Of a stretch of 64,000 bases of DNA, positions 9,459 through 58,991 are shown one piece after another. Both the position numbers and the translations under genes were made by a program. The notes beneath the pieces are model-generated. The model saw nothing but the letters and a program-made list of their open reading frames with translations, made no database searches and was not told where the DNA came from. The DNA is taken from assembly GCA_964016885.1 (NCBI GenBank), contig OZ024746.1, positions 59,582,001-59,646,000 of the forward strand. The letters are read 5' to 3'. Each line of letters starts with the position of its first letter. Position 1 is the first letter of the stretch. The stretch is from Eledone cirrhosa. Lineage: Eukaryota.

Positions 9459-9497
9459 TATCTTCTGATGAAGGACTAGTGTCTGAAACATAAATAT
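9459..9497 (+). ncRNA. Degenerate minimal hammerhead ribozyme motif
   Basis: CTGATGA-aGGAC-tagt-GTCT-GAAA-ca-TA. Stems I and III are imperfect. Confidence 0.35.
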
Positions 9498-10407
9498 TCT
9501 TTTTTCTACTATATCAAGCTTTAAACTAATATATTTCTGCATTCCACTGTGTTGATTACTTTGTTGTTTCCGTTTACCTTTCGCATACATATATGAGTAT
9601 ATGTATGTGTATGTGTGTGTGTGTACATGTATGCATATGTGTGTGTGCTCGTGTGTGTGTGTGCAATGTGTGCGTGTGTGCGCATGTGTGCGTGCATGCG
9701 TGTGTGTGTAGAGAGAGAAAGGAGAGAGGAGTGAAGAGAGAGAGCACAGAGATTGTTCAGCATACTCTTTGAAGATAGAATGTTTGTGCGTGTAAGAGAT
9801 AGAAACGTAGTAAGAGAGGAAGAGAGAAAGAGGGGATAGGGGCAATATATTAGACAGATTGAGGGAGAGTAAAGGCCGTGGCAAGAACTCTCATTTATTT
9901 CTCATCCTTTCAGTTAAAGTTTCTATAAAAAAAAACCATATCTCACTGAATTCTTTTGATTCTGCAAGAAAATCACAGAGAATCGCAGATAATACCAAAT
10001 TTCAGAATTATTACATTACACGTTGGACATATCATTGTATCACATGTTGGGAAATAGGATGAAATATCTCTTTTTGTTATTCATGGTTCTCATGGTGTGC
10101 TTTTACACGATATAACATGATATCACTTAATAATCAAAATGTGTTTTTGTTCTAAGGTTTATATCTCTATAGAGGTATTAAATTTCTTTAATACGAGGTG
10201 CTGTCTAAATGTTTAGGTTGTGGGTTGGTTTGAAGTGGTGAAGACGATAAAAAAAGAAAGTCTTATAGAACAATATTTATGTGCATCTGTAACAAAAGCG
10301 CAGCCATGGTTATGTGGATAAAGAATTCGCTTCACCATCCTGTTGTTTCGAATTCAGTATCACTAATTGGCTCCATTGACAACTGTTTTCTACTAGCAGT
10401 ACACCTT

Positions 10408-10546
10408 TAATAAACGAAGCCAAATTTTAAATATTTGACTTATTTATTTTATTTTACATTACTCCGAAGTAACCAAACCAACCTGCGCACTTCGTCGAGT
10501 GCTCCAATCTGCATACTGAGGTGTCGGTAAACAACCAACATATACT
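10408..10546 (+). mobile_element. 3' tail of the hammerhead-bearing element at 55218-55760
   Basis: Near-identical to 55410-55545 (TAATAAACGAAGCCAAATTTT...GTCGGTAAACAACCAACATATACT). Confidence 0.75.
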
Positions 10547-10796
10547 AAAAAAAAAAAAAATGTGTATATATATATATATATATATATATATGGGTAATAG
10601 GAGTCAGGACCCCGCCGGCTGAGCTCCAGCCGTTTCGACACTTAAATCCGAACTATATATATAAATGTTGATCTATCTCAAATAAAACTCAGAATTAACT
10701 ATAGGGAAGACCATATTAGAGTACCTTAAAATAAAGGAACCTCATATACGTATCATCCAGAGGCAAAATTCATTGCTAGGGCTTAACAAATGTTTT

Positions 10797-10896
10797 CTCT
10801 GACTGCAGTTTCATAAACTAAACCCACAGAAATTATCTATCTCGATTAATTAAGATAGTCTATCTCGGCTAGAAAACTTGTCTCTTCATCGGAAAG
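10797..10896 (-). ncRNA. Degenerate type I hammerhead with long stem II
   Basis: Minus strand: cttt-CCGATGA-(~75 nt)-GAAA-ctgcag-TC-agag. Stem III is palindromic. The host island is flanked by (TA)n. Confidence 0.5.
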
Positions 10897-11286
10897 GGTT
10901 TTCTGTTTCCAAAATTAAGAGAGACAAAATATATCTACCTGCTGTCGTGCAATATATATATATATATATATATATAATATATGTATATATATATATAATA
11001 TATGTATATATATATATATATATATATATATAATATATGTATATATATATATGTGTATATATATATATATATATATATATATATATATATATATATATAT
11101 ATATATATATATATATATGCGATGAAATATCAATGATCGTTGGCAAATCACTGATGAGGGACTAATTTTATAATATGTAATCCATGTGCAACCATGCAGT
11201 ATTCTTCTCCCCATGTTTTTCACACACATATATATATATATATATATATATATATATATATATATATATATATATATATATATATA

Positions 11287-11478
11287 ATTGTTTCTACAAT
11301 AGGCACAAGGCCACCAAATATCCAGTGTATTACTGGTACTTTATTTTATCGACCCCCGTTAGGATGAAAGGCAAAGTTAACCTCGACGGCATTTGAACTC
11401 AGAATGGCAAGGGCTGTAACTCTATGCGTCAAAGCATGGCGTCCGACCCTCTACCGATACTGCCAATTCAGCGCCCTT
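11287..11478 (-). mobile_element. SINE family A
   Basis: Full-length match to the family consensus. Confidence 0.9.
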
Positions 11479-11502
11479 ATATATATATATATATATAATG
11501 CA

Positions 11503-55396: not shown

Positions 55397-55807
55397 ATAT
55401 CTATAATTTATAATAAACGAAGCCAAATTTTACATATTTGAGTTAATTATTTTACATTACTCCGGAGTAAACAAACCAACCTGCGTACTTCGTCGAGTGC
55501 TCCAATCTGCATACTGAGGTGTCGGTAAACAACCAACATATACTCAAAATATATATACTGTGTATATACTATTTGATAGCTGTTGACATTCCTGACTTCA
55601 TTCGCCCTTTGACAAGCTTTGCTATATAGTCTGCAGATATAGTTCTCAATAGTCGGGTATGGTGGTTTGACGGTGTAGTCGTCGATGACCCGATCAAACC
55701 ACAGGTTATACTGGGTTACATAATATATGTAGCTCTCACTAACAAGCTAATGTATATGTATATATATATATATATATATATATATATATATATATGCATA
55801 CATATAT

Positions 55808-56445
55808 AACTTTTCCATTGGAAGTCCCTAGGGATCTCCAATCTTTTGTGAAGTGAAACCGATCGGTAAAAGCAATTGGAATAGGTAAATATTTAAATTA
55901 TATTTTTTAATTTATTTAAAAAAATTGTTTGAATCTTGCTTGCTCCGCTTATCTCAATATTATAGTTCTGGTAAGTCAAATTGATACCATAGAACAACCC
56001 TTATATCATAGACGCCCTATATATTTCCAGGGGTACTTAGTACCTGTGGGGATATTAACTTCTTTTAATATTCTCCGTTATGTAGAGAACAAATCTGTTC
56101 TATTTAGCTGCTATTTTTAGTGGTGAGGTAGACAACACGTCTATGTTTACTTCCGCTTCTACTTCGGACTGGTTCATGCATAGGTCAAATTTTCGGCCCC
56201 ATTCGATCCTGTGCTAGCTGGCAGATGGCAATATATTTTGCCGTTCCTGGGACTTTTAGTCCTAGGAAAGGAAAATGCTTTCTGATGATCTAAACTTTTC
56301 CATTGGAGGTCCCTAGGGATCTCCAATCTTTTGTGAAGTGAAACCGATCGGTAAAAGCAATTGGAATAGGTAAATATTTAAATTATATTTTTTAATTTAT
56401 TTTAAAAAATTGTTTGAATCTTGCTTACTCCGCTTATCTCAATAT
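55808..56445 (+). mobile_element. Non-coding hammerhead retroelement (retrozyme-like), 485 bp unit, 1.3 copies
   Basis: 153 bp direct repeats at 55808-55960 and 56293-56445 (3 mismatches); hammerhead; (TA)n flanks. Confidence 0.8.
56276..56359 (+). ncRNA. Type I hammerhead ribozyme with extended stem II
   Basis: tgcttt-CTGATGA-..ATTGGAGGTCCC-ta-GGGATCTCCAAT..-GAAA-ccgatcgg-TA-aaagca. Confidence 0.82.
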
Positions 56446-56869
56446 ATATATATATATATATATATATATGTGTGTGTGTGTGTGTGTGTGTGTGTGTGTG
56501 TATATATATATATATATATATATACATATGTATGAAGATACATATATACGTATAGGCAAACATACAGGCATAAACAGAAGCATCACGTTGCCTGAATACA
56601 CATACTTATACACAACACTCACACACATACATACACACAGACACACACACACACAAACAAACAAACAAACACACACACACACACACACATGCACAGACAG
56701 TTCTAAATGGCCACCAGATGTCAGTTATTACCACTGACAGATCAAAAATATCTCCAATTGTCTGCAATTGTCAGCTTCTATTTCTTAAATCCGTCTCAAG
56801 TATTAGTGGCTTGTTTTGGGGGTTTTTTTCTTATCTTATGTATTTGGTTGGTATCTTTGGAATTTTTCG

Positions 56870-57460
56870 CCATCATGATCGCTATCATCACCATCAGCAA
56901 TATCATCATCATCATCATCATCATCATCATCATCATCATCATCTTCGTCGTCGTCGTCGTCGTCCTCATTATCATTATCCCCATCATCAAATTCATCATC
57001 CCCATCATCACCATCATCATCATCATCATCATCATCATCATCATCATCACCAGCATCACCACCATCATCATCATCATCATCTTCACCATCACCACCACCA
57101 CCATCATCATCATCATCATCACCATCACCACCACCACCATCATCATCATCATCATCAGCATCACCCCCACCACCACCAACACCACTATCATCATCATCAT
57201 CATCATCATCATGATCATCCACAAAATCATTAACAACCTTGTTTCAATCATCTTTATCATCGTTATCTTGATTATCATCTTCCTCATCATCATCATCATC
57301 ATCATCATCACCAACACCATCATCAGCAGCATCTCCATCATCATAAACATCATCATCGCCATCAGTCATTTCATCACCATCATGACCATTATCAGCATTA
57401 ATATCATCATCATCATCATTTCCATCATTATCATCATCATCATTATCTTCATCATTAGTA
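56870..57460. repeat. (CAT/CAC)n array
   Basis: Directly visible. Confidence 0.9.
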
Positions 57461-57466
57461 TTATCA

Positions 57467-58105
57467 ATTGGCAGTGTCGGTAGAGGGTCGAACGCCATGC
57501 TTTCTACCATAGAGTTATGGCCCTTTACGGTCTAAGTTCAAATCCCGCCGAGGATAACTTTGCCTTTCATCCTTACGAGGTCGATAACATAAAGCACCAG
57601 TAATACACTGGGGTCGATTTAATCGACTTTCCCCTCCCCTTCAAATTACTGGCCTTGAGCCTATACTAGAAATCGTTATTATTATTATAGGGACGGTGGA
57701 TTGGCAGTATCGGTAGAGGGTCGGACGCCATGCTTTGACGCATAGAGTTACGGCCCTTGCCATTCTGAGTTCAAATCCCGACGAGGTTAACTTTGCCTTT
57801 CATCCTTACGGGGTCGATAAAATAAAGTACCAGTAATGCACTAGTTAATTGCTGGCCTTGTGCCAAAAGTAGAAACAATTATTATTATTACATTGGCAGT
57901 ATCGGTAGAGAGTCGGACACCATGCTTTGAAGCATAGAGTTACGTCCCTTTATGATCTGAGTTCAAATCCCGCCGAGGTTAACTTTGCCTTTCATCCTTA
58001 CGGGGTCGATAAAATAAAGTACCAGTAATGTACTGGGTAATTGCTGGCCTTGTGCCTAAAAATAGAAATAACAATTATTATTATTATAAGGTGGTGGATT
58101 GGCAG
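57467..58105 (+). mobile_element. Three tandem SINE family A copies plus a stub
   Basis: Consensus match; each copy follows the (ATT)n tail of the previous one. Confidence 0.9.
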
Positions 58106-58790
58106 AAACAATTATTATTATTCATTTTTATTCTCTTTCTTGTTTTAGTTATTGCTTCTGTATCTGTTTCCACCTATCAATTACCACTCCCAAAGTATTG
58201 GTGAACCCCACGTTATAAAAGACAGAAGGCTCAAGTGCTGTGCTGTGAGTTGGAAGAGGGAAACACATGGTTGTTAAATGAACCATACAGCCATACTTGA
58301 GAAAAATAAAAGTAGGCAGGCACATAAGCATGAAATGGAACCCGCAACTTTTGGGTGCTGGGCAAGTCCATAAACCATGACGCTAAGAGACCCGTGGCTA
58401 CTAATTGCTGCCCTTTATGACGATTGGCCTTTGTGGAGAGAGATATCACATGTTAATGCGCAGTCTGCAACTGGCAAAGTTTAGCGTCACAACAGATGAG
58501 ATATATTTAAAGCCATTAACCCTTCAACAGGGATACTTTACCCGATTTTCTCAACTATTATTTATAGTGAGTAACTATTATTTTAATCATTTACGTAGGG
58601 AGGACTACATTTCAAATTTCTACAATGTTTCTTAAGTCATCTGGATATTCCCACTTCTAGCTACAGGTTTTAAATCTTCTTTAAAAAACACGGCAATTAG
58701 TAGCCAGGACCCACCTATTGTAATGGTTTATACACTCACCCGGCATCCGAGCGGTGCAGGTTTCAACAATTATCTCTAGTTATCCGGGTT

Positions 58791-58991
58791 AAATCGGGGG
58801 TAACCACTGTAAATAAGGTACTCAATGCATAACAGAGTATAAATGTTAAATATAGAAATGGGTTCTACAAGACTAGAACTGTTTCATTCGAAGGAAATCA
58901 TCAGAAGCCATTTCTATATTAAACATGTATACTCTGTTATGTATTGAGTACCTTACTTAAAGTGGTTACCCCCCCAATTGAACCCGGGATA
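58791..58991. mobile_element. Fold-back element (~72-84 bp arms) with a central degenerate hammerhead (58871-58909, minus)
   Basis: Arms 58791-58862/58908-58991. Minus strand: ggctt-CTGATGA-tTTC-cttc-GAAt-GAAA-cagt-TC-tagtc. Confidence 0.65.

Follow-up and report, generated by a model that had tools for sequence, protein, structure and literature searches.

Minimal type I hammerhead ribozymes with a palindromic helix III are known from Penelope-like elements (PLEs), and many families, solo motifs and opposite-strand pairs have been described for many animals (Cervera and de la Pena 2014, PMC4209133). The role of hammerheads in PLEs is still open (PMC8557442, PMC4209133). A second described system is that of the retrozymes without long terminal repeats (non-LTR), which are non-coding, low in GC and built of tandem monomers that each carry a single type I hammerhead (PMC7229834; Li et al. 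2026, preprint 10.64898/2026.07.22.740005). The window analysed here is a stretch of 64,000 nucleotides of Eledone cirrhosa (GenBank assembly GCA_964016885.1, contig OZ024746.1, positions 59,582,001 to 59,646,000 of the forward strand). With the genome around it (2,995,841,428 bases in 1,796 contigs), it is a new, unusually large example of this known system of PLE hammerheads and retrozymes. As in the genomes of PMC4209133, many families occur in one genome, full elements are few, and the motifs are mostly solo or in opposite-strand pairs 100-700 bp apart. The extra nucleotide after A9 reported there is also present in two of the families found here, B and I.

For cephalopods, Penelope is listed among the expanded coleoid repeats (PMC8967140). 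The O. vulgaris repeat paper counts 31 recently active PLE families, with 190 PLE families making up 6.83% of the genome, and ribozymes are not mentioned in its accessible part. Hydra-1_Obim, from Octopus bimaculoides, is a Hydra-clade PLE with an annotated hammerhead (Craig 2021 supplement, PMC8557442). No genome-wide account of cephalopod hammerheads or retrozymes was present in the literature searched, from which most subscription papers are missing. The first-pass annotation of the window had taken the system to be largely invisible to open reading frame (ORF) or repeat annotation, and possibly undescribed. Invisibility can be upheld at most for the ribozymes and retrozymes, the PLEs themselves being annotated, as the O. 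vulgaris share indicates. The system as such has been described before (Cervera and de la Pena 2014, 2020; Hydra-1_Obim), and what looks new is its scale and an unpaired C.C or C.U at pair 4 of helix II.

We first report the motifs of the window. With both strands read, all 18 sites listed in the first-pass annotation go back to hammerheads of type I. In three cases, two motifs are inverted copies inside a single insertion, so the 18 motifs represent 15 insertions, belonging to about 13 families and mostly in a (TA)n context; the initial count of about 15 motifs in about 10 families was too low. Three descriptors, devised after the motifs had been seen, were used for the searches. The strictest (T1) asks for the core CUGANGA/GAAA/UH, a helix I of at least 5 bp, a helix II of at least 3 bp and a short paired helix III, and tolerates one extra nucleotide after A9, present or absent, in helix II. 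The second (T2) drops the helix II requirement and the third (T3) allows a helix I of 4 bp. Window matches were 8 for T1, 10 for T2 and 8 for T3.

Eleven of the sites had been called clear, and they stand. T1 is passed by 30052, 31089, 43033, 43250, 47786, 47904, 49569 and 55342. The motifs at 54697 and 56276 pass T2 only, with a mismatch at the base of helix II that is common to their families. The core, the UH site and three helices, open at helix I, are thus found in ten motifs by descriptor and in 29447 by alignment. This last one fails the descriptor because its helix III is 30 nt long, including a 14-nt duplication, with helix I lying beyond it, yet its core is intact and its helix I measures 7 bp. 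The other seven sites are decayed, as had been proposed. For five of them (9459, 12967, 40334, 50177 and 58871) the core is intact in relatives elsewhere in the genome, 10797 belongs to an old family, and 41813, with two diverged relatives only, is the weakest of the 18.

The shuffle control that the first-pass annotation had called for agrees with its view that the motifs are non-random. Block-wise dinucleotide shuffles of the window (200-nt blocks, n=100) gave 0 matches at all three tiers. A sample of 59 evenly spaced 10-kb stretches of the genome, 590 kb in total, has 28-36 real matches, against at most 1 in 20 shuffles, and reversed-pattern controls gave 0 matches genome-wide for each of six family patterns. 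With an earlier, laxer descriptor, 2 of 100 window shuffles had one match each. Its match at 19557-19640, produced by a lax helix III rule, was false and has been dropped. Helix covariation is seen as an A-U to U-A swap in helix II variants of family D, as compensatory, paired double changes in helix II of families E and C, and as several pair types per position, all judged from the observed pair changes rather than by a formal covariation statistic.

In the Rfam scan, also proposed at the outset, no match in the window reaches the gathering score. Of the 508 weak matches, the 150 listed contain a single hammerhead, HH9, at 49553-49624, with 38.9 bits against a cut-off of 52. These weak matches are dominated by microsatellites resembling microRNA models. 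Minimal PLE variants depart from the curated Rfam models, and a low score lowers only membership of that Rfam family.

Two of the families lie in the pseudo-long terminal repeats (pLTRs) of PLEs with a single ORF that joins a reverse transcriptase (RT) to a GIY-YIG endonuclease at the C terminus. The first, family A, is present as two inverted pLTR pairs. The insertion at 42907-43355 holds an inverted copy at 43033..43103 (-) and a direct copy at 43250..43320 (+), the latter with 100% identical copies on many contigs. The insertion at 47756-48100 holds an inverted copy at 47786..47856 (-) and a direct one at 47904..47974 (+). The 81-nt motif of this family recurs in identical form on many contigs. 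A 5'-truncated family A element with Hydra-clade motifs, and with insertions in its 3' region that resemble short interspersed nuclear elements (SINEs), spans 50147..52990 (-). Its 3' pLTR carries a decayed hammerhead at 50177..50244 (-), with a 3-nt deletion when aligned to relatives. Within the element, a 533-aa stop-free frame at 51350..52948 (-) encodes the RT core and thumb, a CxCX5C linker and a GIY-YIG-type endonuclease. The decayed hammerhead of family L at 40334..40396 (+), with a 3-nt deletion at the cleavage site, has the same helix I as family A.

The protein motifs of family A are DKT, YRDD, CxCX5C, CxxC before E and CxH after N. Together with the (TA)n target, these are the marks by which the Hydra clade is defined (Craig 2021, PMC8557442), although the RWK position reads RWI in the one copy examined for it, at locus L001. 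The protein tracks the published alignment of these C-terminal endonuclease-bearing PLEs motif by motif, by eye. It is visibly diverged from Hydra-1_Obim, again compared by eye, and the accessible part of the Craig 2021 supplement contains none of the family A hammerhead strings. An initial assignment to the Neptune clade was rejected against the published Hydra definition. At locus L001, two same-strand family A pLTRs, 3.6 kb apart, surround a frameshifted RT and endonuclease region, so that the tandem pLTR arrangement is seen as well as the inverted, 5'-truncated one. The family A frame of the window resembles protein clusters in which some members carry RVT_1, HTH_animal and GIY-YIG, and at 0.97-0.98 the window frames of both A and B are matched to clusters of the RT/GIY-YIG/HTH_animal kind. 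Among the 81 genome matches scored, at least 8 keep a frame of 808-908 aa free of stops, and intact family A elements therefore likely exist, as judged from these frames. Isolated pLTR tail fragments of families A and B were also observed between (TA)n runs, at 59011-59047, 29890-29957, 31228-31295 and 40149-40215.

Family B is, from its protein motifs, a second PLE lineage, of Neptune/Nematis type, the two clades not being told apart. Its hammerheads form the third inverted pair of the window, with an inverted, 5'-truncated pLTR copy at 30052..30096 (-) and a 3' pLTR copy at 31089..31133 (+). The segment 31024-31159 matches the inverted copy around 30052 over 136 bp at 100%, in inverted orientation. 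The pair brackets a stop-free frame at 30095..30784 (+) that encodes, from about 30160 on, the end of the RT thumb, a CX4CxxC linker and a GIY-YIG endonuclease. RT and endonuclease are near full length at loci L066 and L167. The linker agrees with the CX2-5CxxC of Neptune/Nematis elements, with which the family also shares the PxKY motif and, at the C terminus, a GIY-YIG with C..C..H..H (CCHH) in the endonuclease. It differs in the DKG motif, which reads DKS.

Three further families (D, F and H) appear from their sequence to be non-coding tandem repeats whose monomers measure 466 nt (D), about 485 nt (F) and about 556 nt (H), and thus to be like the non-coding retrozymes that the first-pass annotation had named as known from several animals. 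Family D is the clearest. One monomer of 466 nt with a 121-nt terminal repeat lies in (TA)n at 49277..49863 (-), and its hammerhead at 49569..49613 (-), the one with the weak HH9 match, has a GUC site, a CUAG palindrome and an extended helix I. Elsewhere the family forms arrays with a period of 465-469 nt and 99% identity, the largest with at least 31 units among the matches listed, often adjoining an inverted array; locus L164 has 18 motifs in 9.9 kb. Like the published non-LTR retrozymes, it is non-coding (the longest Met-frame is 19 aa in sense, with none above 50 aa in antisense), has a low GC content (36%) and carries a type I hammerhead in each tandem unit. Its circular fold, also strongly self-paired as in those elements, is predicted at -154.2 kcal/mol, against -94.7 +/- 5.9 for 40 shuffles (z = -10; 0 of 40 as stable).

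The family D monomer is also found in sequencing-run contigs of four organisms, and one contig is a closed 466-nt loop. One of these runs has the monomer at very high depth; its type (DNA or RNA) is unrecorded, so the depth has no bearing on expression. No RNA data set was listed among the carriers of family D. In run contigs of three other organisms, at low depth, monomers are 95-99% alike to the window copy. Whether such copies reflect relatives, contamination or transfer cannot be told apart.

The element of family F, a monomer of about 485 nt with a 148-nt terminal repeat, lies at 55809..56441 (+). Its hammerhead at 56276..56359 (+) has a CCGAUCGG palindrome, and the base of helix II is weak across the subfamily. 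At locus L131 two motifs are 488 nt apart. The element of family H, at 29032..29713 (+), has a period of about 556 nt (554-556 nt at two loci), an inverted 5' piece and (TA)n flanks. Its hammerhead, at 29447..29540 (+), combines the 7-bp helix I with the long, duplicated helix III, and its helix II closing pair is A.C, which is A-U in 8 of 9 relatives. Both families were seen only as partial tandems or dimers, without long arrays, and their circular folds are weaker than that of D (z = -4.6 for F). As for length, the 466-556 nt monomers are longer than the 170-400 nt retrozymes of Cervera and de la Pena 2020 (PMC7229834) and fall within the 51-972 bp of the more recent preprint (10.64898/2026.07.22.740005), the circles being only predicted here.

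The remaining families of the window are known from their motifs. Family E has a CCACUGG helix III and a helix II partly decayed in the copy at 54697..54757 (-). Family C, at 55342..55396 (+), has a UAUAUA palindrome and a C.C at helix II pair 4. The decayed family G motif at 58860..58909 (-), previously listed at 58871, lies in an inverted repeat (58784-58987) and has intact relatives. The decayed minimal hammerhead of family I, at 9459..9496 (+), has lost its CG palindrome and helix I, and the core and helix I are intact in several of its 12 aligned relatives. That of family J, at 12967..13009 (+) inside the inverted repeat 12804-13122, has two core changes, and its relatives have an intact core and a CAUG palindrome. 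Family K, at 10797..10898 (-), is old, with a long helix II, a CUGCAG palindrome and U4 changed to C; copies are about 70-87% identical, and CUGAUGA is kept in 2 of the 8 other aligned copies. The decayed family K2 motif is at 41813..41906 (-). In the loci examined, no linked ORF and no clear tandem unit was found for C, E, G, I, J, K, K2 and L, and these families may be pLTR remnants of PLEs outside the sample, or non-autonomous elements.

A decayed candidate that had not been listed, at 25629..25666 (-), has GAUA in place of the GAAA box. No relative of it was present among the genome loci examined. More hammerhead families were noticed outside the window, at L072:2793-2930, L075:2599-2637, L107:6343-6426, L159:4325-4819, L156:2886-6607 and L128:3112-3340. 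Their palindromes are GUAC, CAAUUG, CUAAUUAG, CGUGCG and longer ones, and several have U.U or A.A at the base of helix II. Separately, an abundant repeat at 11117-11250 (+), with 11 matches in the 590-kb sample, has a conserved half-core, CUGAUGA, with a GAAA some 30 nt upstream of it, and no hammerhead helices. It resembles the 'half core' noted for Naiad PLEs.

To estimate copy number, six exact family patterns were used on both strands, each covering both core halves and part of helix I, with helix II pairing outside the pattern. The A-group (A, L and a third related family) has 37,917 matches genome-wide, followed by B with 15,954, G with 15,642, C with 10,586, D with 8,930 and E with 6,234. 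This amounts to 95,263 core-intact motifs, one per 31 kb of a genome of about 3 Gb. The six patterns cover 30 of the 40 descriptor matches in the 590-kb sample, which suggests a genome total of about 120,000 motifs. Direct extrapolation from 28-40 motifs per 590 kb gives 140,000-200,000 and was not adopted as the main estimate, since the sample runs high, with 19 A-group matches against 7.5 expected.

The density that had been called unusual therefore holds for the genome, which is very rich, while the window itself is a local high. It has 9 pattern matches against 2.0 expected, about 4.5-fold above the genome rate, and the adjoining 200 kb have 9 against 6.4. The (TA)n share is 7.5% in the window and 4.6% in the sample. 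Genome sizes are about 0.45 Gb for the coral, 1.5 Gb for Xenopus and 30 Gb for axolotl. With these sizes, and with descriptors that differ between studies, the 3.2 motifs per 100 kb found here exceed the densities for these three. The published counts are more than 6000 motifs in 16 families for Acropora, about 5,000 for Mytilus and up to 120,000 for axolotl (PMC7229834). About 4,000 are given for coelacanth, 9,000 for X. tropicalis and about 2,000 plus 1,300 for S. mansoni (PMC4209133), and our count of at least 95,263 is above those of the latter study, again with different descriptors. For the giant squid, 235 hammerheads were reported by Rfam (PMC6962438).

The commonest class also differs from the hammerheads of PMC4209133 in its structure. 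Its palindrome is of the RY type and 6 nt long, the extra nucleotide is absent, 10.1-11.1 is often A-U or G-U, and pair 4 of helix II is the unpaired C.Y. Of 51 distinct motifs that combine such a palindrome with a UA site (families A, L and C and their relatives), 47 have C.C or C.U at pair 4, which are not independent events, the 51 coming from perhaps three or four lineages. In the same motifs, pairs 1-3 (partly selected by the descriptor) and 5-9 are paired in 92-100%, with several pair types. The G10.1-C11.1 pair, called highly conserved by Cervera 2014 (PMC4209133), is absent from A, E, F and G. For the D. virilis motif, the same paper describes a helix II with a bulged nucleotide. The unpaired C.Y may be a new detail; a literature search for a helix II mismatch gave the known papers only, with Lunse et al. 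2017 and supplement file 1 of Cervera 2014 outside the search, either of which may show it. A far-reaching extension would be that the dominant class is an undescribed obligate-dimer variant with C.Y tuning its activity, that some 10^5 intact hammerheads are the densest load among the printed counts compared, and that solo copies within host transcripts, pairing in trans by way of their palindromes and also with abundant retrozyme circles, cut host RNAs genome-wide. We consider this improbable.

The reading that we favour, with a probability of roughly 0.8, is that type I hammerheads at the ends of PLEs and of non-coding retrozymes cut multimeric transcripts for circularisation and recopying into (TA)n. 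The hammerheads would cut such transcripts into unit-length RNAs, cleavage presumably requiring two copies paired via the palindromic helix III. The unit-length RNAs would then circularise, and the Penelope RT and endonuclease would copy them back into (TA)n sites. Reverse transcription beyond unit length may give partial tandems, and the non-coding families may be trans-mobilised by PLE enzymes. These steps are drawn from PMC4209133, PMC7229834 and the preprint 10.64898/2026.07.22.740005. The loop of helix III is tiny or missing, and alone the helix folds at 0 to -0.9 kcal/mol, against -1.7 (B) to -16.6 (F) kcal/mol for its self-duplexes, calculated energies that fit the published dimer mechanism. 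Furthermore, (TA)n is present on at least one side of 10 of the 11 window insertions examined. Same-strand neighbours occur only within complete elements and arrays of retrozymes. Being solo or in opposite-strand pairs, the majority of the genomic copies are likely inert footprints.

Several points weigh against this reading. Minimal PLE hammerheads cleave poorly even as dimers (PMC4209133), and Naiad PLEs spread without canonical hammerheads (Craig 2021, PMC8557442). Cleavage, RNA and circles are predictions of the model, none observed here. The Pfam scan of the window PLE frames was blank. Of the 40 motifs in the genome sample, 22 are in inverted pairs, 18 are solo and 0 have a same-family, same-strand neighbour. 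In the loci examined, C, E, F, G, H, I, J and K had no copy with a tied PLE frame (tblastn with 16 PLE queries; upstream frames). Apart from short core matches, D, F and H have no significant sequence in common with A or B. The PLE-driven system proposed at first thus stands for the two families in pLTRs of RT and GIY-YIG elements, and can only be inferred for the mobility of the non-coding ones.

The alternative that survives best, although we regard it as unlikely, is that the folds are real but cut little, serving as structural or recognition signals for the RT in pLTRs or being carried as passengers. The low in vitro activity of the minimal forms speaks for it, as do the proliferation of PLEs without hammerheads, with the suggestion that hammerheads may parasitise PLEs (Craig 2021, PMC8557442), and the families that lack the G10.1-C11.1 pair. 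On the other hand, about 13 unrelated families have preserved the full catalytic core and a UH site, their stems showing compensatory changes, and invertebrate retrozyme hammerheads cleave efficiently in published assays (PMC7229834).

Less probable still, and in our view very unlikely, is a different route for the non-coding families, as satellites or SINEs amplified through the enzymes of long interspersed nuclear elements (LINEs) or by unequal crossing over at the DNA level. The missing sequence link to A or B and the long arrays of family D would suit such a route, and the loci examined often contain LINE RT frames, RTE-like ones among them. However, these families have the insertion signature of PLEs, with (TA)n targets, inverted 5'-truncated copies and partial tandems, and the preprint of Li et al. 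2026 (10.64898/2026.07.22.740005) ties animal retrozymes to PLE pLTRs. Finally, chance matching in repeat DNA rich in AT and in hairpins is already refuted as the source of the motifs by the shuffle and reversed-pattern controls, even with tandem repeat making up about 40% of the window, one false lax match and a blank Rfam gathering search.

As for the neighbouring repeats, a very common short repeat, often in inverted pairs, adjoins (TA)n like the PLE insertions do. It is found at 4208-5716, 11287-11879, 13121-13345, 20580-21037, 25387-25568, 27460-27713, 28663-29012, 49935-50115, 50761-51231 and 57467-57681, and it resembles a tRNA-derived SINE. Short near-perfect hairpin elements lie in (TA)n at 48252-48376, 40464-40524 and 10592-10655, and one such element is at the centre of an inverted family C pair at locus L156. 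A 477-bp inverted repeat with 98% identity spans 60092-61228, and a 314-bp repeat at 849-1161 has an inverted 98% copy 62 kb away, at 62745-63058. A fragment at 34918-35100 (+) is presumably part of a LINE reverse transcriptase, and the CTGATGA within it, at 35007, is not a hammerhead.

No new kind of element is revealed by this window. Rfam-based annotation misses nearly all of these ribozymes, as the 18-motif window without a gathering-score match and the 235 reported for the giant squid illustrate. Lastly, dimer cleavage, circle formation and trans-mobilisation are testable in one host, which combines young, likely active autonomous elements (open frames above 800 aa) with a young retrozyme of about 8,900 motif copies and with a dozen hammerhead designs independent of one another.

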